Below are positions 11,899 through 31,377 of a DNA stretch of 31,377 nt, piece by piece. The DNA is taken from positions 1-31,377 of the forward strand of contig JAHWJK010000002.1 in NCBI GenBank assembly GCA_019348445.1, in the 5' to 3' direction. The notes under the pieces were generated by a model, which saw nothing but the letters and a program-made list of their open reading frames with translations, did not search any database and was not told the DNA's origin. Each line of letters begins with the position of its first letter. Within the stretch, counting starts at the first letter, position 1. The DNA comes from Actinomycetota bacterium. GTDB taxonomy: Bacteria > Actinomycetota > CADDZG01 > WHSQ01. A program made the translations under genes and the position numbers.

Positions 11899-12752
11899 TG
11901 CTGCGTCACGCGACGGGAGCCCTCGATCTGGACTCCTGCGTCGTGATGGGGATAGTGAACCGCACGCCGGACTCCTTCTACGACGGCGGACGGATGGATA
12001 CCGATGACGTCATCGAGCGAGCTCTGCGTCTCGTCGACGACGGCGCTGCGATCCTCGACCTCGGCGCCGTGAAGGCGGGTCCGGGGGAGGATGTCGGTGA
12101 ACAGGAAGAGATCGATCGCCTCCTCCCACTCGTAGAGGCACTAGCGAAGGACGCGCCGGTGCCGCTGTCGGTGGAGACGGCCCGCCCTTCGGTTGCCAAA
12201 CTCGCGTTCGGTGCCGGAGCCGCGATGGTGAACGACGTTTCTGCTCTCGCCGATCCCGACCTCGCGCGGGTGTGTGCTGAAGCAGGAGGTGCGCTGGTGC
12301 TCATGCACAACGGGGAACAGGTGCGCGGACGTCCGCGGAACCCGCGCTACGACGACGTCGTGGTTGCTGTCATCGACGAATGGAAGCGGCTCGAGTCGAT
12401 CGCTACCAAAGCCGGCGTCGGGCCCGATCAGATCGTCGTCGATGCCGGTCTCGACTTCGGTAAGACGACGTTCCATTCGTTGGAGATCATGCGCAGGCTG
12501 GAGGAGCAGGTCGCGTACGGGCGTCCGTTGCTCCTGGCGCCGTCCCGCAAGGACGTCGTCGGAGAGAGCTTGGGCCTGGGCGTCGCAGAGCGTCTCGAAG
12601 GCACGCTCGCTCTCGTCGCCCTCGGCGTACTCGGCGGGGTGTCGATCGTTCGGGTACACGACGTCGCTCCGGCACTTCGTGTCGTTCGCATGGTCGAGAC
12701 GGTCATGGGCGTGCGACGACCGGAGGCTCCGATTCGCGGCTTATGGGAGTGA
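11895..12752 (+). CDS. folP: dihydropteroate synthase family protein, FolP2-like
   Basis: VMGIVNRTPDSFYDGG, DLGAVKAGPG, DFGK, SRKDVVGE, ERLEGTLA, VRVHDV. ATGA overlap with the DMT stop. The ORF-track start at 11046 is spurious. Confidence 0.92.
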   Translation: MMLRHATGALDLDSCVVMGIVNRTPDSFYDGGRMDTDDVIERALRLVDDGAAILDLGAVKAGPGEDVGEQEEIDRLLPLVEALAKDAPVPLSVETARPSVAKLAFGAGAAMVNDVSALADPDLARVCAEAGGALVLMHNGEQVRGRPRNPRYDDVVVAVIDEWKRLESIATKAGVGPDQIVVDAGLDFGKTTFHSLEIMRRLEEQVAYGRPLLLAPSRKDVVGESLGLGVAERLEGTLALVALGVLGGVSIVRVHDVAPALRVVRMVETVMGVRRPEAPIRGLWE

Positions 12753-12789
12753 TCCGCGGCGACGTCCTTGCTCCGAAGCCTGCACTTGG

Positions 12790-12795
12790 TACCTT
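12790..12795 (+). promoter_or_regulatory. extended -10 (TG-G-TACCTT), leaderless start of a receiver gene
   Basis: 6 nt before GTG 12802, no SD. Confidence 0.5.
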
Positions 12796-12801
12796 TTCGC
12801 C

Positions 12802-13173
12802 GTGGCGAAGACCGTTCTGATCGTCGAGGACGAAGAGGCAGTGCGCGAGCTCGAGAAGTTCATCCTCGAGCAGGTCGGCTACGAGGTGATGGAAGCTCGT
12901 GACGGGCTGGAGGGCTTGACGAAGGCCGAGTTCCGTAGGCCGGACCTCATCCTTCTCGACCTGATGATGCCGGACGTGTCCGGCGGCCGGATGTTCGACG
13001 AGATGAAACGTCATCCGGCCACGGCGGGTATCCCGATCGTCGTCGTCACCGGCAAGCCGGACGCTCATCAGATCTTCGACGACCAGATCGGCCCCGACAA
13101 CGTGATCATGAAGCCGTTCGAGGCAGAGACGTTGTTGTCGCGTATCGAAGCGCACATCGGCGCGCCGCTCTAA
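12802..13173 (+). CDS. single-domain response regulator (CheY-like receiver)
   Basis: VLIVED, LILLDLMMP (phospho-Asp), VVVT, MKPF. Start re-placed at GTG 12802. Confidence 0.92.
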   Translation: MAKTVLIVEDEEAVRELEKFILEQVGYEVMEARDGLEGLTKAEFRRPDLILLDLMMPDVSGGRMFDEMKRHPATAGIPIVVVTGKPDAHQIFDDQIGPDNVIMKPFEAETLLSRIEAHIGAPL

Positions 13174-13190: not shown

Positions 13191-13958
13191 TTGGTCGTAA
13201 TCGCCGGCTTCCTAGGGCTGATCTTCGGAAGCTTCGCTACGGCAGCCTCGTACCGGATCCCGAGACGCGAGTCGATCGTCACCGGCCGGAGCCGCTGCCC
13301 CCACTGCGGGAACGTCGTCACTGCGGTCGAGAACGTCCCGGTGTTCAGCTATGTGTTCCTTCGGGGGAGATGCCGTCACTGCGGCAATGCGATCTCGCCC
13401 CGTTATCCACTCACCGAACTGGCGACCGGGGTCCTGTTCGCGCTCGCGTTCTGGAAGTTCGGGCTGAGTTTGCGCGCCGTGGCGTACGCGGCGTTCTTCT
13501 GGGTCCTCGTAGTTCTCACGGTCATCGATCTCGAGCACAGGTTGTTGCCGACACGCGTCATCTACCCGTCCGTGGTCGCGGGTTGGCTACTGCTCACTGC
13601 TGATGCGTTGATCGCGAACGAACCATCGCGCTTGCTCGATGCTCTGGTCGGTATGGCGATCTTCGGCGGGTTCTTCTTCACGGTCGCCTTCCTGGTGCCG
13701 CGCGGCATGGGCATGGGCGACGTTCGTCTCGCCCTATTGCTCGGAACATTCCTCGGCTATCTAGGGGGAGCCGGTTTCGTCCTCCTGGGGATGTTCATGT
13801 CGTTCCTGACGGGCGCTGTCGTCGGCGGGATCGCCGCAGTGGTGACGAAGGGAGGACGCAAGATGAAGATCCCGTTCGGCCCATTTCTCGCGGCGGGAAC
13901 GCTCATCGCGATCTTCGTCGGCCGTCCGGTCCTCGACGCCTACCTTGGAACGCTCTGA
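13191..13958 (+). CDS. pilD: type IV prepilin peptidase (A24) with N-terminal Zn-binding domain
   Basis: SRCPHC and GRCRHC, IDLEH and GMGDVRL catalytic Asp motifs, IPFGPFL. Confidence 0.95.
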   Translation: MVVIAGFLGLIFGSFATAASYRIPRRESIVTGRSRCPHCGNVVTAVENVPVFSYVFLRGRCRHCGNAISPRYPLTELATGVLFALAFWKFGLSLRAVAYAAFFWVLVVLTVIDLEHRLLPTRVIYPSVVAGWLLLTADALIANEPSRLLDALVGMAIFGGFFFTVAFLVPRGMGMGDVRLALLLGTFLGYLGGAGFVLLGMFMSFLTGAVVGGIAAVVTKGGRKMKIPFGPFLAAGTLIAIFVGRPVLDAYLGTL

Positions 13959-13979: not shown

Positions 13980-15011
13980 CTACGCCAGCTGCGCGGGACG
14001 CTCCAGGAAGACCTCGCCAACCAACCGGCACAAGGTGGGGTCGAACTGCACGCCGGCATGGTCCAGCACCTCCTGGATCGCGGCGTCGAAGTTCATCGGA
14101 CGCCGGTACGGCCGCAGAGAAGTCATCGCGTCGATCGCGTCGGCGATCGCGAAGAGGCGCGCGGCCGGCGGGATGTCGTCGCCTTCGAGGCCGTCGGGAT
14201 AGCCCCGCCCGTCCCAACGCTCGTGGTGATAGCGGATCACATCCCTAACGACCGAGGGGAAACCAAGCGGAGCGACGATGCGTTCGCCGAGGATCGGGTG
14301 CGTCCGGAGCACGAGTGTCTCCGTATCCGTGAGGCCCCCCGGCTTCGTCAGGATCGTCTCGGGTATCCCGATCTTGCCGACGTCGTGCAAGAGGAAGGCG
14401 GCCTCGAGTGATTCGCTCGGCACCGCCCCGTCCAGCATCGCTGCCCGCGCCAGACGCATCGCCATCGACGTCACGCGCTCGGCGTGGCCGCCGGTGTACG
14501 TGTCTTTCAACTCCAGTGCCGACGCCAGCGCCCGCGCCGCGTTCATCGCATGCATGTCTCCGCTAGGGGAGAACGCGTGTGTCGCCTCGAGCGTGTCGTG
14601 GAGTACGTCGGCAGCCGGGGCCGAGTACAGCATGCCGCGGTCTGCGACCTCCGTGATCGCGTTCGCGAGCCGCGACGCGTCGCTACCGCGAACGACGTAT
14701 CCGCCGATCCCGAGGGCCAGCGCTTCGGCGGCAGTCTTCTTGTCGGAGGCGTCGGCAATGACGACCGCACCGCGCTGCAGTCCGATCTTGCGCACCATCC
14801 GCAAAGGGGCCGCCGGATCTTCTGAGTCGGAATCCGTGACGACGACGATGACGTCTATGTCGCGGGCAGCCGTTTCGAGGCTGACGGGATCGATCCCTTC
14901 GGCAACGACTATCTGTGACGAACGCGATCCGAGCGTCGAAGACAGCGCGACCCACATCGAGGCATCGCCTCCGATCAACAGGATCCGCAGTGGCGGTTGC
15001 GCCTTGATCAA
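13980..15011 (-). CDS. HD-GYP phosphodiesterase with degenerate NarL-type receiver
   Basis: HAERV, HDVGKIG, HP..G, HHERWDGRGYP, ADAIDAMTSLRPYR are intact. The N-terminal REC-like fold lacks the acidic pocket and Lys. TTG start overlaps the upstream TGA. Confidence 0.93.
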   Translation of the reverse strand: MIKAQPPLRILLIGGDASMWVALSSTLGSRSSQIVVAEGIDPVSLETAARDIDVIVVVTDSDSEDPAAPLRMVRKIGLQRGAVVIADASDKKTAAEALALGIGGYVVRGSDASRLANAITEVADRGMLYSAPAADVLHDTLEATHAFSPSGDMHAMNAARALASALELKDTYTGGHAERVTSMAMRLARAAMLDGAVPSESLEAAFLLHDVGKIGIPETILTKPGGLTDTETLVLRTHPILGERIVAPLGFPSVVRDVIRYHHERWDGRGYPDGLEGDDIPPAARLFAIADAIDAMTSLRPYRRPMNFDAAIQEVLDHAGVQFDPTLCRLVGEVFLERPAQLA

Positions 15012-15463
15012 ACCGTCGTCACGCCCAGCCGGTCGAGGTCCGTCGCTCTGTTGATCAACTCGAGTCGCCGCTCGGCGCGCTCTTCTGGTGCGAGGTCGAG
15101 TAATTCACGGATCGTTTGGGCAACCGCCGCCGGCGAGAACGGCTTCCTCAGATGTGCATGTGCACCGAGCTGCATCGCCTGGATAGCGGTTGCGGGGGCG
15201 CCGTTCGCCGAGAGGACGACCACGCTCGTGCGGTCGAGGATGTCCTCGTCGCGCAGGTGCTCGAGGACCTCGAACCCGTCCATCTCGGGCATCGCGAGGT
15301 CGAGGATGCATCCATCCCACTCGCCCGACCGGAGCATCTCGAGTGCCTCTCCGCCGTCACCGGCTTCACCGAACCCGATGCCGACCAAGCTGAGATTCAT
15401 CCCAACGATCGTTCTGATGTCCGGCTCGTCGTCGACGACGAGTACGCGGAGCGGGTCGTTCAC
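15008..15463 (-). CDS. response regulator receiver with a short C-terminal helix
   Basis: VLVVDDE, ILDLAMP, VVLSA, RKPF. About 25-aa tail with no recognisable output domain. Confidence 0.92.
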   Translation of the reverse strand: MNDPLRVLVVDDEPDIRTIVGMNLSLVGIGFGEAGDGGEALEMLRSGEWDGCILDLAMPEMDGFEVLEHLRDEDILDRTSVVVLSANGAPATAIQAMQLGAHAHLRKPFSPAAVAQTIRELLDLAPEERAERRLELINRATDLDRLGVTTV

Positions 15464-15464
15464 G

Positions 15465-16646
15465 CTAGCTCCCGGTGTTGCTTGGAAGGCGGTGGATCAG
15501 ATCTTTGAAATTCGTTCTGACGAAATCGGACAGCCGGATGTCTTGCGACACGTGAAGCTTCCTCCGGATGCGCGCTTTGTGACTGCGAACCGTGCCGCGC
15601 GTGATCCCGAGTCGGCGTGCGATCTCGTGCTCTGTGCGCCGGTGCGAGAGGTGGATCAGCACGTCCCACTCTCGATCGGTTAGCTCCTCCGACAGCGCGA
15701 TCGGGTTCAGACCGTGGCGCCGCGGGTCGTCGGCTCGCCACGAGCGGCCTCCGCCCGATTCCCGCGCTCGGAACAACGCGATCTCGGCACGAGCGATGAC
15801 GTCGTCGGTGCTCCGCCCGGTGTTGGCTTGTGCAACACCGACAGAAACAGAAGTTGCTTCACCGACGACTTCGACGTTCCGGATCTCTTCGCGGCATCGC
15901 TCTGCAGCGAGGTAAGCAGTGCCGACCTCGGTGTCTGGGAGGACGGCTGCGAACTCATCGGTGCTGTAGCGGAAGATCTCGTCCGACACGCGCAGCGTCG
16001 TGTGGAGCACATCGGCAACCTGCCGCATGAGCTCGTCGTGGACCGCGGGGCCGTGCTTGTCGACGACTTCCTGAGCGTTGTCGAGTGCGATCAGGAGTAC
16101 CGAGAACGGAGCCGAGCTCCGCGACGAACGTGAGACTTCCTGATCGAGGCGTTTCGTGAAGGCTTCGCGCCCGTGCAACCGGGTGACCGGGTCGGCGCCC
16201 GCCTGCAGCTTGATCTCCTCTTGACGCGCTTTCGTGCGTGCAGCTGCTCCGACGCGGGCAACCAGCTCGCGGGGATCGGCAGGTTTGCTGATCCAGTCGA
16301 CGGCGCCACGCTCGAGTCCTTTGACGCGGTCTTCCGTGCCCGTGAGGGCAGACAGGAAGATGACGGGGATGTCGGCCGTGCGGGGGTTCGCCGCGAGCTC
16401 GGTCAGGACCTCGGCCCCATCCATGCCCGGCATCATCATGTCGAGAAGGATCACGTCGGGGTGTCGCTCGACGGCCAGTCTGATGCATTCTTCACCGTCG
16501 GCCGCCTGGATCACGTCGTAGCCCTGCGGGGAGAGCTGCATGTCGGCGAGCATGCGAAGATCCGGGTCGTCGTCGGTAACGAGGACCAGCGGCCTGTCGG
16601 AATCGGCACCTCGCCGGGGATTCGTCTGATGCGTCACGTTTCTCAT
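15465..16646 (-). CDS. REC - degenerate GGDEF - LuxR-type HTH protein
   Basis: Intact receiver (TDDD, LLDMMMP, FLSA, SKP). GGDEF fold with RVSD..RYSTDEF and ARAEIALFRARESG. C-terminal LTDREWDVL..EIARRLGITRGTVRSHKARIRRKL. Confidence 0.9.
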   Translation of the reverse strand: MRNVTHQTNPRRGADSDRPLVLVTDDDPDLRMLADMQLSPQGYDVIQAADGEECIRLAVERHPDVILLDMMMPGMDGAEVLTELAANPRTADIPVIFLSALTGTEDRVKGLERGAVDWISKPADPRELVARVGAAARTKARQEEIKLQAGADPVTRLHGREAFTKRLDQEVSRSSRSSAPFSVLLIALDNAQEVVDKHGPAVHDELMRQVADVLHTTLRVSDEIFRYSTDEFAAVLPDTEVGTAYLAAERCREEIRNVEVVGEATSVSVGVAQANTGRSTDDVIARAEIALFRARESGGGRSWRADDPRRHGLNPIALSEELTDREWDVLIHLSHRRTEHEIARRLGITRGTVRSHKARIRRKLHVSQDIRLSDFVRTNFKDLIHRLPSNTGS

Positions 16647-16739
16647 TGATCCAGGTTGTCACCCGGCCCCCGCGTATGGAATGAACCGTTCGCGTCATTT
16701 CCTTGTAGTCACTAGTGTCTAGGTGCACGCGACCACCCT

Positions 16740-16745
16740 TACGAT
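16740..16745 (+). promoter_or_regulatory. -10 TACGAT, leaderless start of the DUF5319-like gene
   Basis: 7 nt before ATG 16753. Confidence 0.5.
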
Positions 16746-16752
16746 GGGCTCG

Positions 16753-17214
16753 ATGGACGAAGAAGACGTTCCAACGCCTGAGGGCGACCAGCCACTAGAC
16801 GCCGACGAGCGCGAGGCCCTTCAACAGGATCTTGTCGACGTCCAGGTTCTCAAGGAGATCCTGGGAAACAAGGGCATCCGAGGCGTCGTCTTCTATTGCC
16901 CCGATTGCGACGAGGATCATTTCCTCGCGTGGGATCTGCTCGCGGGGAACCTTCAAGAACTACTCGCCGCGGGTGAGTCTCCCGTCCACGAGCCTGCCTT
17001 CAACCCCGATCCGAACGATTACGTGTCGTGGGATTACGCCCGTGGTTTCCTCGATGGCTACGAGTCGTTCGAGCAAGAGGAGCTGGGCGACTCCGTCTTG
17101 AAGCTCGTACTCGAGTTGAAGACGCGCGGCTGGCGCCCCGACGAGGTGAAAGCGCTACTCGCGAAGGTCAATCTGCAGATCCCTCCGCTCGACGAACCTG
17201 CTCCACCCAGCTGA
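16753..17214 (+). CDS. DUF5319-like actinobacterial protein (CxxC..H metal site)
   Basis: DLVDVQVLKEIL..GIRGVVFYCPDCDEDH..WDLLAGNL..HEPAFNPDPNDYVSWDYARG matches the family as I recall it. ATG 16744 is an alternative start. Confidence 0.8.
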   Translation: MDEEDVPTPEGDQPLDADEREALQQDLVDVQVLKEILGNKGIRGVVFYCPDCDEDHFLAWDLLAGNLQELLAAGESPVHEPAFNPDPNDYVSWDYARGFLDGYESFEQEELGDSVLKLVLELKTRGWRPDEVKALLAKVNLQIPPLDEPAPPS

Positions 17215-17217
17215 CCG

Positions 17218-18003
17218 ATGCCGCGAACCATCGCCTTCGCTAATCAAAAAGGCGGCGTGGCGAAGACGACGACTACGCTCGCCATCTCCGCCGCGTTGGC
17301 CGAACGAGGTCGTCGGGTGCTGACGGTCGACATGGATCCGCAAGGAGCGCTCACGTATTCGACCGGGATCGATCCGGACGCATTGGACGAGACGGTCAAC
17401 GACGTCCTGGTGAGACGGCTGCCGGTCGAGAAGGTCGTCGTGACGCGTGAGGTGGACGTCGTGCCGGCGAACATCGATCTAGCGGGGGCCGAGGCGATCC
17501 TGCTCGCGAAGACGGGGCGTGAGTATGCGTTGCAGCGGGCGTTGCGAGACGTCGGAGACACCTACGACTTCGTGTTGATCGATTGTCCGCCGTCTCTCGG
17601 GATCCTGACGATCAATGCCCTCACCGCGGCGCAAGAGGTCGTCATCCCTCTCCAGTGCGAGGCGCTTTCGCACCGAGGGGTCGGTCAGTTGATCGAGACG
17701 CTCGCGGACATCAGGCATTTCACGAATCCCGACCTCGAGATCTTCGGTCTCATCCCGACGATGTACGACGGCCGGTCGCTGCATGCACGCGAGGTTCTGA
17801 ACGATGTCGGCCGGCGCTATGGAGTCACGGTTCTGGAGCCACCGGTGAAGAAGTCCATACGCCTGGCCGAGGCGGCGCAAGCTGGCTTGTCGATCCTCGC
17901 TTATGCGCCGGGACACGCCGCCGCCGACGCCTACCGGGAGCACGCACGTCAGCTCGACGATCGGCGCGTCGATGTGAAGCTCCAGCCGGAAGGGGTCTCG
18001 TGA
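17218..18003 (+). CDS. orphan ParA/Soj family ATPase (Rv3213c-like)
   Basis: Deviant Walker A NQKGGVAKTT, DMDPQG, PANIDLAGAE, IDCPPSLG, PLQCE. No parB adjacent. Confidence 0.95.
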   Translation: MPRTIAFANQKGGVAKTTTTLAISAALAERGRRVLTVDMDPQGALTYSTGIDPDALDETVNDVLVRRLPVEKVVVTREVDVVPANIDLAGAEAILLAKTGREYALQRALRDVGDTYDFVLIDCPPSLGILTINALTAAQEVVIPLQCEALSHRGVGQLIETLADIRHFTNPDLEIFGLIPTMYDGRSLHAREVLNDVGRRYGVTVLEPPVKKSIRLAEAAQAGLSILAYAPGHAAADAYREHARQLDDRRVDVKLQPEGVS

Positions 18004-18239
18004 CCGAGCAAGACGTTCCGAGCAAACACGCTCTCTACACCGCATCCGAGCGGCGGCCGCGGACGTGCACGATCGAGTGCTCGTCGTGTCGCGAAGAAAC
18101 GAGGGTGTCCTACCTGGAACTCGCCGCGCTTCTGTTCCCGGTTCACTTCCACGTTCCGCTGCTCCGATATCACCACTCGTGGATGCGCTGTCCGGCGTGC
18201 GGTCGGCGGACGTGGGTACGGATCCATTTCGATCGATGA
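18000..18239 (+). CDS. 79-aa Zn-ribbon protein (CSSC...CPAC)
   Basis: GTG overlaps the ParA TGA (GTGA). Two CxxC pairs and a His-rich segment. It is the C-terminal part of ORF-track 17583..18239. Confidence 0.75.
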   Translation: MTEQDVPSKHALYTASERRPRTCTIECSSCREETRVSYLELAALLFPVHFHVPLLRYHHSWMRCPACGRRTWVRIHFDR

Positions 18240-18250
18240 TCGTTACCGAC

Positions 18251-18256
18251 TAGTCT
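18251..18256 (+). promoter_or_regulatory. -10 TAGTCT upstream of the Lys/Ala-rich gene
   Basis: TANNNT about 30 nt before ATG 18288, with SD-like AGGGGG in between. Confidence 0.4.
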
Positions 18257-18287
18257 TGCTCGCTCCGGTGAGATAGGGGGTTCTGAC

Positions 18288-18782
18288 ATGGCCACTCGTA
18301 AACAGAAGAAGCAGGTCAAAGTAGCGAAGAAGCAGATCGGCAAAGCCGCGGACAGCCTCACGAAGGTCGGCAAGAAGGCGGTCCGGACCGCGGGCAAGAC
18401 GGCGCGGGAAGTTGCGAAGACGCGCGACGCGAAGAGCGCCAAGAAGCAGGCGAAGGTAGCGCAGAAGGCAGTAGGAGCGGCCGCCGGAGCGGGGGTCGAG
18501 CTGGTAAAGACCGCCGTAGACGCGGCGACGAAATCCGCCAAGGGACTGTCGAAGTCGAAAGAGGTCAAGAAGGCGCGTAAGAACGTGTCGAAAGCCGCGG
18601 GGGCGAGTCGAAGTGCAGCCAAGACGACCGCCAAGACCGCGCGCAAGTCTTCGTCACAGGCCGTGAAGGAAGCGCGCGCTCGCAGCGCGGCAGCTGCTAA
18701 GAAGTCGAAGAAGGCTGCGAAGTCGACCGCAAAGAAGACGTCCGCCTCAGCGGCGAAGGCTCGCAAGAAAGTAGCGGGCTAG
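18288..18782 (+). CDS. Lys/Ala-rich, highly basic histone-H1-like protein
   Basis: Hand count of about 40 Lys, 10 Arg and 7 acidic residues in 164 aa. No aromatic residues or Pro. AAG-dominated codon usage. Confidence 0.85.
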   Translation: MATRKQKKQVKVAKKQIGKAADSLTKVGKKAVRTAGKTAREVAKTRDAKSAKKQAKVAQKAVGAAAGAGVELVKTAVDAATKSAKGLSKSKEVKKARKNVSKAAGASRSAAKTTAKTARKSSSQAVKEARARSAAAAKKSKKAAKSTAKKTSASAAKARKKVAG

Positions 18783-18856
18783 TCCGAAGTAACCGGTTCG
18801 TCCGCCGAGTCCGGGATTGCCTCATATAAGGGCTCAAAAAGGCCGATGATTAAGTC

Positions 18857-19792
18857 ATGACGACGAGGGGGCCGCGGCCCCAGCCTTCCCGCGCACAGTG
18901 GTTGCGTCGGCTCGCATACCGACGCAAGGACAGCGTCGCGTTCGTGTTCTCCGGTGGGGGCCCGCTAGGCGCGCTTCAGGTGGGGACGCTCAAGGCTCTC
19001 TACGAGCACGACATCCGGCCGGACCTCGCGGTCGGGACGTCTGTCGGTGCGCTCAACGCAACGTGGACGGCTTTCGATCCGACGCCGGACGGCGTGGCGA
19101 GGCTCGAAAGCACCTGGTTGCGGATGAAGGATTCGGACCTCTTCCCGGGCGGCGGCCGTTTCAAGGCATCGTGGGCTCGCATGCTCGTACGCGGCAACCG
19201 CATCCACGAGAACATCGGGATCAGACGCGTGATCGAGACGTCGCTCGGGCTGCCGCGTTTCGAAGATGCGCAGATCCCTCTAGCGGTCACGGCGACGGAC
19301 CTCGAGACCGGAGCCGAACGGATCTTCAGCTCGGGAGACATCATCGATCCGTTGCTCGCGTCGACCGCGATGCCCGGGATCTTTCCCCCGGTCCCGATAG
19401 GGGGTCGTAACTACATCGACGGAGGGGTCGCGAACAACGTCCCGATAGCACCGGCGGTCGAGATGGGAGCGACGACCGTCTACGTGATGGATGCGACGTC
19501 GCACTCGCGTCAGAGGAGACCGCTCAACCGCCCGGTCGACTACCTCCTTCACGCGTTCACGCTTGCGAGGGGGCAACGGTTCACCCTCGAAGCGCGGCAC
19601 TACGAGGAAAAGGTCAAGCTGGTCGTTCTCCCGTCGCCATGGCTCGACTTCTTCGTACCGTTCGCATCGCTCGAGTACACATCGAGGCTGATCGAGATGG
19701 CATACAAGGAAACGAAGCGGTTCCTCGAGTCCGGCAGCCTCGATCAACCGTTGCCGCCCGAGGTATCTGCGTCGGTCACTCCACTCAGCTAA
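18857..19792 (+). CDS. patatin-like phospholipase
   Basis: FSGGGPLG oxyanion loop, GTSVG nucleophile, DGG catalytic Asp. Confidence 0.95.
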   Translation: MTTRGPRPQPSRAQWLRRLAYRRKDSVAFVFSGGGPLGALQVGTLKALYEHDIRPDLAVGTSVGALNATWTAFDPTPDGVARLESTWLRMKDSDLFPGGGRFKASWARMLVRGNRIHENIGIRRVIETSLGLPRFEDAQIPLAVTATDLETGAERIFSSGDIIDPLLASTAMPGIFPPVPIGGRNYIDGGVANNVPIAPAVEMGATTVYVMDATSHSRQRRPLNRPVDYLLHAFTLARGQRFTLEARHYEEKVKLVVLPSPWLDFFVPFASLEYTSRLIEMAYKETKRFLESGSLDQPLPPEVSASVTPLS

Positions 19793-30642: not shown

Positions 30643-31377
30643 CTATCCGTGAGTTACTTCGTCGTCGACCAGGCCGATGTGTGCCTTGCCGAGTGGTGCC
30701 GTTGCACAGGGAAGGAAGATCGAGAACGTCGTTCCGCGGCTGGATGATTGGAGGTCGATCCGCCCGTTCATCGCGGCGACGAGCTGGCTGACGACGTAAA
30801 GACCGAGTCCGACGCCCTCTTGACCGGCCGCGGTCTCCTCGATGCGGCTGAACGCCTCGAAGAGCTTGTCGCGCTTGTCGCGTGGGATGCCCTCGCCGTC
30901 GTCGCGGACCTCGATCTGGACGCCACCGGAGACGCCCTTGGCGGACACCACGACGCGCGTTCGGTCATGCGTGTACTTGTACGCGTTCTCCACGAGGTTA
31001 CGGACGATCTGGGTCACTCGGTACGGATCCAACTCGACGCGCACCGGGTCGACGAAGAGCTCGAGGAGATGCGCGCGACGTTTGCCGCCCGCGGCTTCGA
31101 CCGCTCGTTTGATCGTCGAGTCGAGCTCGACCCATTCGGGCTGCAGGTTCAACCCGCCGCCCTGCATCTCGGCGGAGATGAATAGGTCCTGCACGAGCCG
31201 GTCCAGCTCGCGGCCTTGGAGATACACCATCTCGAGCAAGTGGTCGCGACGTTGCGGGTCGAGTTTGTCCCACCGAGACCGGACCGTTTCGACGGCGGTG
31301 ATCATCGTGCTTACCGGACCGCGGATCTCATGAGACGTGATCGCGATGTAACGGTCCTTCAGGTGGTCGAGCTCTAC
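30643..31377 (-). CDS. sensor histidine kinase, C-terminal part (5' end beyond the window)
   Basis: The frame stays open to the window edge (VELDHLKDRYIAITSHEIRGPVSTMIT..). H-box SHEIRGP, N-box NLVENAYKY, DDGEGIP, GVGLGL. Confidence 0.94.
   Translation of the reverse strand, partial: VELDHLKDRYIAITSHEIRGPVSTMITAVETVRSRWDKLDPQRRDHLLEMVYLQGRELDRLVQDLFISAEMQGGGLNLQPEWVELDSTIKRAVEAAGGKRRAHLLELFVDPVRVELDPYRVTQIVRNLVENAYKYTHDRTRVVVSAKGVSGGVQIEVRDDGEGIPRDKRDKLFEAFSRIEETAAGQEGVGLGLYVVSQLVAAMNGRIDLQSSSRGTTFSIFLPCATAPLGKAHIGLVDDEVTHG

Follow-up and report, generated by a model that had tools for sequence, protein, structure and literature searches.

The gene at positions 15465-16646 of the window, by which we mean the whole stretch of 31,377 nucleotides analyzed here, encodes P0001. 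This protein probably represents a novel type of transcription factor that senses c-di-GMP and occurs only in one uncultured group of Actinomycetota. In the most far-reaching reading, to which we give a probability of about one half, it would represent an undescribed class in which a single polypeptide senses c-di-GMP through a GGDEF I-site and a WRADDPRR linker and gates a LuxR-type HTH, phosphorylation of the receiver being a second input. Within the family, proteins would range from a 'trigger' cyclase-transcription factor with an intact GGDEF to a pure receptor. The initial annotation had also proposed a c-di-GMP-sensing transcription factor. An invariant RxxD motif and a genome with other c-di-GMP enzymes strengthen that proposal, although it overstated the loss of metal-binding residues and part of the family is GGDEF-intact. 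As it had anticipated, no characterized family with a REC-GGDEF-LuxR HTH architecture was found in the literature, the PDB or AFDB.

A word-indexed search revealed more than 1000 homologues of P0001. The best 120 of these (61-93% identity) share the three-domain organization without exception, and their only sources are metagenomes or MAGs labeled Actinomycetota. In an exhaustive search of 50%-identity representatives, the GGDEF-HTH part appeared in only about 10 clusters, fragments included, all others being ordinary REC-GGDEF proteins. The initial annotation had called for a survey of the taxonomic spread: among 185,579 species, with one genome per species, two family-specific peptides match 44 genomes, all of them MAGs of uncultured Actinomycetota, to which the architecture is confined in this set. 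In the GTDB class of the window, which counts 113 species genomes, a single copy of the gene occurs in 43 of the 85 genomes of its own family, or in 38 of 80 without five unpublished genomes (G038, G039, G040, G068 and G073), all of which match and none of which contributed sequence to any other part of the analysis. Its presence is consistent inside nearly every genus of the family, and it was not found in the 27 genomes of the three other families of the class. An exact-sequence look-up for contigs encoding P0001 or P0079 gave no match. The ESM Atlas contains a cyanobacterial cluster with REC, GGDEF and HTH_VMAP-M9 domains, for which we found no literature report; its existence suggests that REC-GGDEF-HTH fusions arose more than once.

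The layout of the protein is as follows.

15465-16646, minus strand: whole gene P0001, 393 aa, REC, coiled-coil, GGDEF with degenerate A-site, linker, and LuxR/GerE HTH
16251-16586, minus strand: receiver domain, residues 21-132 (Pfam Response_reg, 4.8e-27)
16440-16442, minus strand: phospho-acceptor D69 in the receiver
16200-16274, minus strand: long helix 125-149, a REC-to-GGDEF stalk of the DgcR/WspR type (DSSP on the AF2 model)
15750-16196, minus strand: GGDEF domain, residues 151-299 (Pfam, 1.6e-27; C134:15750-16196 in a profile search of the contigs of the genome)
15717-15740, minus strand: linker motif W303-R-A-D-D-P-R-R310 between GGDEF and HTH (family-wide conservation)
15534-15686, minus strand: LuxR/GerE-type HTH, residues 321-371 (Pfam GerE, 4.1e-10)
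15555-15596, minus strand: recognition helix G351-L364 within the GerE HTH

Pfam thus recovers all three domains that had been read from this ORF; it gives no EAL match, the middle domain being GGDEF. The receiver is complete and appears phosphorylatable, as described earlier, with the full set of residues (D25/D26, D69, S99, K121), each conserved in at least 95% of the 120 homologues. In NarL/FixJ regulators, two domains are joined directly in about 220 aa, whereas in P0001 the stalk and GGDEF domain, of about 150 aa, separate the receiver from the HTH, and the protein scores 79.7 bits against the NarL NCBIfam model with its 250-bit cut-off. It also falls below the NCBIfam cut-offs for PleD (210 versus 474 bits) and DgcR (136 versus 500 bits). 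P0001 very probably binds DNA. Taking all steps of the proposed mechanism together, the odds are somewhat better than even that it is a DNA-binding response regulator in which a DgcR/WspR-type cyclase module has been turned into a ligand sensor.

We predicted the structure of P0001 with AF2 from an alignment of 91 sequences. The model has a mean pLDDT of 86 and a pTM of 0.49, the domains being confident and the inter-domain arrangement uncertain. It places the receiver, the long helix 125-149, a GGDEF fold, a poorly ordered stretch at residues 311-314 and a four-helix GerE domain (helices 324-334, 339-346, 350-364 and 372-384) in this order. For residues 1-300, the top fold match in the PDB is Leptospira DgcR (6zxb), with a TM-score by target of 0.81 and an rmsd of 3.4 Å, and isolated GGDEF domains match the model at 0.85-0.89 by target with Foldseek. 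None of the PDB or AFDB-cluster matches listed covers all three domains.

The top sequence matches of P0001 in the PDB are PleD, DgcR and WspR. Residue equivalences were taken from the alignment of P0001 with PleD, for which the roles of the individual residues, including that of R313 as a cross-linker of GGDEF domains, are established (PMC12943098).

R173, at 16128-16130, minus strand: PleD R313, secondary I-site Arg cross-linking GGDEF domains, kept
D189: PleD D327, metal binding, kept
Q192: PleD K332, transition state, replaced
V195: PleD N335, guanine binding, replaced
D204: PleD D344, guanine binding, kept
R219-V-S-D222, at 15981-15992, minus strand: PleD R359 and D362, RxxD of the primary I-site, kept and invariant in homologues
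S228-T-D-E-F232, at 15951-15965, minus strand: PleD G368-G-E-E-F372, degenerate A-site signature, both Gly lost
R250, at 15897-15899, minus strand: PleD R390, third residue of the primary I-site, kept and invariant
R295: PleD K442, phosphate binding, Arg in P0001

The positions given earlier for STDEF and RVSD are exact, and RxxD does lie five residues ahead of the signature, with the D222-S228 spacing seen in PleD (R359-D362...G368). The GG[D/E]EF signature of active cyclases is absent, and the A-site has further lost F331 (A191), K332 (Q192), N335 (V195) and the first Asp (A187). The statement that the first helix had lost its metal and GTP residues therefore holds for N335, K332, F331 and the first Asp, but not for D189 and D204, which are retained. 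Across the family, the K332 equivalent is missing throughout, and the N335 equivalent is kept only outside the subclade of P0001. D189 is invariant in the 120 homologues, and E231 and F232 stay invariant as well; since these three residues persist, some A-site-related role is conceivable, and they may serve a structural purpose or bind a nucleotide or metal.

From these replacements, P0001 very likely lacks cyclase activity. The opposite case, in which it would still be an active, non-canonical diguanylate cyclase, like some AGDEF and SGDEF enzymes, fused to an HTH and its I-site would serve ordinary product inhibition, can draw on the retained D189, D204, D230, E231 and R295, on the presence of GGDEF in most distant family members, and on an AGDEF enzyme described as active in the accessible part of its source (PMC3974145). 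We consider it highly improbable, because both glycines and the N335 and K332 equivalents are replaced and because the catalytic positions take 5 to 10 different residues in the subclade, as expected of neutral drift rather than of a newly evolved active motif.

This variation was quantified in the subclade of P0001, defined as 34 sequences at 73% identity or more, over 370 aligned positions. Position 192 (K332) is the most variable of all, with 10 different residues, followed at rank 6 by position 229 (G369), at rank 22 by 228 (G368) and at rank 29 by 195 (N335). The residue pair at 228-229 reads ST, SS, SG, GI, RS, AT, AP or GN, and D230 is replaced by H, N or G. Conversely, no variation at all (zero entropy) is seen at the I-site, linker and HTH positions. 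Among the 120 homologues, R219, D222, R250, D69, D189 and the recognition helix G351-L364 are 100% invariant, as are the linker residues W303, R304, D306, D307 and R309. R173 is invariant in alignments A1 and A2, and the linker follows the motif WR[A/S]DDPR[R/K] in nearly all family members, variants being confined to L033, L040, L042 and L046. RxxD is present in 120 of 120 metagenomic homologues and in 42 of 42 full-length species-level proteins, so that it is conserved even in every homologue with a degenerate active site. R250, R173, the linker motif and the recognition helix are likewise invariant over these two sets. The sole exception encountered in the species scan, RAPN, belongs to a partial gene on a 3.8-kb contig. 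The alignments directly support a degenerate A-site in P0001 that is under relaxed selection, and an I-site (R219, D222, R250, R173), WRADDPRR linker and recognition helix that are under strict purifying selection.

The A-site differs greatly from one family member to another. The signature is GGDEF in 71 of the 120 homologues and takes some 24 different forms in the other 49. Members that combine GGDEF with the N335, D327 and D344 equivalents number 71 among the 120 metagenomic homologues and 15 among the 42 full-length species-level proteins, of which the remaining 27 have a non-canonical A-site. By parsimony, the state of the A-site changes at least nine times on the tree of the 42 species-level proteins. 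The earlier view of a catalytically dead GGDEF consequently applies to P0001 with its degenerate A-site, but not uniformly to the family, in which 15 of 42 species keep GGDEF. The family is mixed: members that keep GGDEF may still be cyclases, while P0001 and the others most likely act as receptors only. A cyclase-transcription factor may have been ancestral, with the receptor-only state as a repeated derived condition.

An outgroup of ordinary REC-GGDEF proteins puts the I-site in perspective. RxxD occurs in 69 of the 71 outgroup members with GG[DE]EF, which indicates that the I-site of the family was inherited from a genuine product-inhibition site. Active cyclases, too, commonly have RxxD, R250 and R173, so that the conservation of these residues is partly inherited; in the GGDEF-keeping members, it could serve ordinary product inhibition. 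What is informative is that the I-site outlasts every loss of catalysis. On this pattern, P0001 probably binds c-di-GMP at its I-site, and we infer that binding affects its interaction with DNA.

The distant members, at 42-49% identity, extend this picture to the receiver. Their signatures include GKGEF, SSETL, GRAEI, QGDSF and DEHAF, and their receivers are without acidic pocket or phospho-acceptor, yet R219, D222, R250, R173, the linker and the recognition helix are all retained. This bears on the possibility that P0001 is a response regulator controlled by phosphorylation only, with the GGDEF domain as a dimerization or spacer scaffold and the I-site arginines in structural or inter-domain salt bridges, for example to the DD of the linker. 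A complete receiver, conserved in most members, would fit such a role, and the two Asp of the invariant linker could indeed pair with the I-site Arg. However, the deepest branches drop the phospho-acceptor and acidic pocket and still keep the I-site, linker and HTH, which argues against phosphorylation as the sole or core input. Moreover, the four kept residues are exactly those contacting c-di-GMP in PleD, whereas many catalytic and nucleotide-binding positions of the GGDEF domain vary freely. We regard control by phosphorylation only as unlikely.

Downstream of P0001, two genes on the same strand form a tight operon with it.

15008-15463, minus strand: stand-alone receiver P0271, 151 aa (Pfam, 2.4e-25), 1 nt downstream of the P0001 gene
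13980-15011, minus strand: HD-GYP phosphodiesterase P0270, 343 aa, with N-terminal pseudo-receiver (Pfam HD_5, 6.5e-35), overlapping the stop of the receiver gene by 4 nt

P0271 looks like a phosphorylatable receiver, and the HD and HHERWDGRGYP motifs of P0270 are intact. HD-GYP enzymes yield pGpG or GMP, and a pocket in P0001 with a nucleotide ligand other than c-di-GMP, be it pGpG, a mixed cyclic dinucleotide, (p)ppGpp or GTP, would agree with the presence of such an enzyme in the operon, as well as with the PDB structures of PleD bound to ppGpp or pppGpp (9g85, 9g86). Two observations make this quite improbable: the constellation of RxxD, R390 and R313 is an established c-di-GMP I-site, and several of the A-site residues for GTP-like ligands (192, 195, 228, 229) are the variable ones. 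The partial genome (1.56 Mb, 68% complete) encodes seven further GGDEF domains, all of higher score, as well as two EAL and nine HD-GYP domains, which makes production of c-di-GMP in the host very probable. No histidine kinase was found near the gene; the sole HATPase_c fragment is located at the contig end, 14 kb away.

Gene order around the regulator is near-fixed: patatin, a Lys/Ala-rich ORF, a ParA-like ATPase and DUF5319 lie on one side of a divergent region, and the regulator, optionally followed by receiver and HD-GYP, lies on the other, facing prepilin peptidase and X-REC in the opposite orientation. In relatives of the same family without the regulator, DUF5319 directly adjoins prepilin peptidase, indicating an insertion or deletion of the regulator with its upstream region at this spot. 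The receiver and HD-GYP cassette is found in the window and in 11 of the 44 related loci carrying the gene; HD-GYP occurs without the receiver in three more loci and the receiver without HD-GYP in two, one of these at a contig end. We also considered whether loss of the A-site is tied to gain of the cassette and rejected this, as the cassette also accompanies GGDEF-intact members and shows at least six state changes on the tree.

The operon raises the further possibility that the GGDEF domain works mainly through protein contact with the co-transcribed receiver or HD-GYP protein, so that the state of the enzyme controls the transcription factor, as in DgcM-PdeR-MlrA. Besides the tight operon, trigger enzymes provide a precedent in the parts available of PMC5052742 and PMC3715855. 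Such contact would hardly explain the family as a whole, however: about two thirds of its loci lack the cassette and still keep all invariant features, and the cassette was gained or lost at least six times on the tree. We hold this mode of action to be quite improbable.

Alignment of 38 orthologous intergenic regions revealed a conserved arrangement upstream of the gene.

16647-16752, unstranded: divergent control region common to the P0001 and DUF5319 genes
16706-16721, control region: conserved block TAGACA-N4-TGACTA
16678-16687, control region: conserved block GGTTCATTCC
16653-16661, control region: extended -10-like element TGnCAnnnT

The blocks follow each other in the order of a TAGTCA/TGACTA half-site array, GGTTCATTCC and, 21 nt further on, the -10-like element. 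In some genomes, the half-site arrays contain perfect palindromes such as TAGTCAGG/CCTGACTA. GACTA/TAGTC pentamers were observed 49 times, versus 11.6 ± 3.4 in shuffles, in regions that are related by descent and hence do not form an independent test. The conserved block was not found in relatives without the gene. The -10-like element ends 6 nt ahead of the ATG, which suggests a leaderless mRNA. A role of GGTTCATTCC as a -35 box was rejected, since its distance of 21 nt from the downstream -10-like hexamer exceeds what a sigma-70 -35 allows. Rfam at gathering thresholds found nothing in the window and hence no c-di-GMP riboswitch in the leader. Weight matrices built from the conserved block gave few and weak matches in the genome itself, with the operator of the window below threshold, so that no regulon emerged. 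The conserved, operator-like block is what a dimeric HTH protein with an invariant recognition helix might use to regulate its own gene, and we infer from this that P0001 could be the protein that binds it.

These observations lead us to propose the following mechanism. A response regulator with a cyclase module of the DgcR/WspR type would have gained a C-terminal GerE domain, after which selection would have acted on ligand-gated DNA binding via the I-site, and not on catalysis. Two GGDEF domains are linked in PleD and DgcR by an intercalated c-di-GMP dimer, which contacts RxxD and R390 on one domain and R313 on its partner and thereby locks the protein dimer (PMC12943098). In P0001, c-di-GMP would likewise bind the I-site, probably as an intercalated dimer, and cross-link the two GGDEF domains of the protein dimer. 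This cross-link would fix or reposition the paired C-terminal HTHs, hung from the GGDEF domains by the WRADDPRR linker, and change DNA binding, which could be either promoted or prevented. Phosphorylation of D69 by an unlinked kinase would act via the stalk on the same dimer geometry, as in DgcR, the two signals being integrated in this way. Because the deep branches have dispensed with D69 phosphorylation, the nucleotide input would be the core one. More speculatively, P0001 may act on the operator-like block of its own divergent promoter region and control both its own operon, with receiver and HD-GYP, and the DUF5319/ParA-like operon; co-transcription with an HD-GYP enzyme suggests a c-di-GMP feedback, as with PdeL. 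Equally speculative is that the GGDEF-intact members are both cyclases and transcription factors, and thus 'trigger' cyclases.

If this is true, the family would offer a natural series for the conversion of an enzyme feedback site into a signaling receptor, with an A-site that decayed at least nine times. It provides a clean evolutionary record of repeated catalytic loss and of receiver decay in deep branches, next to an invariant allosteric site, linker and recognition helix; this invariance despite the losses suggests that the core function is DNA binding gated by a ligand. It would also open a first way into the c-di-GMP regulation of an actinobacterial class without any cultured member and with a dense c-di-GMP network, whose representative here encodes 8 GGDEF, 2 EAL and 9 HD-GYP domains in its 1.56-Mb partial genome. 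Transcription factors responsive to c-di-GMP use ad hoc sites, as in BldD, VpsT, FleQ and Clp, in MrkH via PilZ and in PdeL via EAL, and the degenerate-GGDEF receptors known to us have non-transcriptional outputs. Direct coupling of a GGDEF I-site to an HTH would supply the missing combination, a compact and portable module from c-di-GMP to transcription. In the literature, we found no account of a LuxR-type HTH joined to a GGDEF domain; VieA, PdeL, PopA and CbrR come nearest.

Compared to known systems, P0001 shows the features of degenerate-GGDEF receptors, namely the RxxD spacing, the R390 equivalent, and an A-site that is degenerate and unselected. PopA, CbrR, PelD and SgmT are I-site receptors of this kind, with a lost A-site and RxxD five residues upstream, and PopA (Caulobacter) and CbrR (Campylobacter) also share the N-terminal receivers (PMC12564702; available parts of PMC8779298 and PMC3509222). 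In PopA, the same RxxD became the receptor site after loss of catalysis (PMC12564702). These four proteins are without a DNA-binding domain, their outputs being localization, polysaccharide synthesis, motility and kinase control, whereas the output of P0001 is predicted to be its fused LuxR-type HTH. DgcR (Leptospira), WspR and PleD have the receiver-stalk-GGDEF layout and the I-site residues and are the best sequence and fold matches, but are active cyclases without a DNA-binding domain. VieA of Vibrio cholerae (REC-EAL-HTH) similarly carries a c-di-GMP-metabolism domain between receiver and C-terminal HTH (PMC4352251); in contrast to P0001, this domain is of the EAL type and active as a phosphodiesterase, degradation of c-di-GMP being the main mode of action of VieA. 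PdeL of E. coli fuses a LuxR-type HTH to a c-di-GMP-binding enzyme domain and autoregulates in response to c-di-GMP (PMC12564702), but with an N-terminal HTH, an EAL sensor (a trigger phosphodiesterase) and no receiver. VpsT of Vibrio, of the LuxR/CsgD type, combines a receiver with a LuxR HTH whose DNA binding is controlled by c-di-GMP, according to the accessible part of PMC3359988. It has no GGDEF domain and binds c-di-GMP via a W[F/L/M][T/S]R motif of the receiver (PMC10333796). This motif is not found in P0001, whose three Trp are located in DWIS, SWRA and EWDV. Among actinobacteria, BldD and RsiG-WhiG of Streptomyces also control transcription by c-di-GMP (part of PMC4151990), as proposed for P0001, but their folds and binding motifs are unrelated, in line with the initial annotation. 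The RADD within WRADDPRR resembles the RQDD of BldD only superficially. Judged from sequence, the architecture of P0001 is a new assembly of known parts with good comparative support and with no new principle.

The regulator gene is followed on the same strand by two tightly packed genes:

15008-15463, minus strand: stand-alone receiver, between the regulator and HD-GYP genes
13980-15011, minus strand: HD-GYP phosphodiesterase, with intact HD and HHERWDGRGYP motifs

Only 1 nt separates the regulator stop from the stand-alone receiver gene, which overlaps the HD-GYP start by 4 nt. The N-terminus of the phosphodiesterase is a receiver-like domain with IGGD in place of the usual acidic pocket, and the enzyme is kept in 14 related loci with 54-67% identity. 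The stand-alone receiver is apparently phosphorylatable and could serve as a phosphate sink or as the partner of this pseudo-receiver HD-GYP enzyme. Across the genome to which the window belongs (a 1.56-Mb MAG, 68% complete), domain matches comprise 8 GGDEF, 2 EAL, and 9 HD-GYP, a c-di-GMP network that is dense for a small genome. The excess of HD-GYP over EAL matches indicates that HD-GYP is the main predicted type of c-di-GMP-degrading enzyme.

The divergent intergenic region between the regulator and DUF5319 genes holds a conserved operator/promoter-like block with three elements:

16706-16721: TAGTCA/TGACTA half-site array, operator-like, conserved
16678-16687: GGTTCATTCC, conserved
16653-16661: extended -10-like TGnCAnnnT

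The half-site core GACT/AGTC is reminiscent of the DosR box. The -10-like element ends 6 nt ahead of the regulator ATG, suggesting a leaderless regulator mRNA. On the DUF5319 side lies:

16740-16755, plus strand: DUF5319 upstream region, with a conserved -10-like TACGAT, then ATG

As the ATG at 16753 comes 7 nt after TACGAT, the DUF5319 gene probably starts there and would give a leaderless transcript; the GTG at 16723 chosen by the ORF finder is probably wrong. The CATCGTA element is also conserved in relatives without the regulator.

Other genes of the window are:

16723-19792, plus strand: DUF5319, ParA-like ATPase, small ORF, Lys/Ala-rich ORF (no Pfam match), patatin-like lipase
12274-13173, plus strand: protein with a C-terminal receiver plus an unassigned N-terminal half
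13191-13958, plus strand: PilD-type prepilin peptidase
30643-31377, minus strand: histidine-kinase ATPase domain (HATPase_c), truncated by the contig end

The order of the DUF5319-to-lipase string is the same in nearly all related genomes, regulator present or absent, and the C-terminal-receiver and prepilin peptidase genes, which adjoin each other, are conserved next to the regulator locus in most of them. The HATPase_c gene, 14 kb from the regulator, is the sole kinase-like gene in the window.

Elsewhere, Response_reg, GGDEF, and HTH_VMAP-M9 occur together in an ESM Atlas cluster from cyanobacteria, whose 62 proteins are about 425 aa long. The cluster is an independent instance of the REC-GGDEF-HTH architecture and may merit the same analysis.
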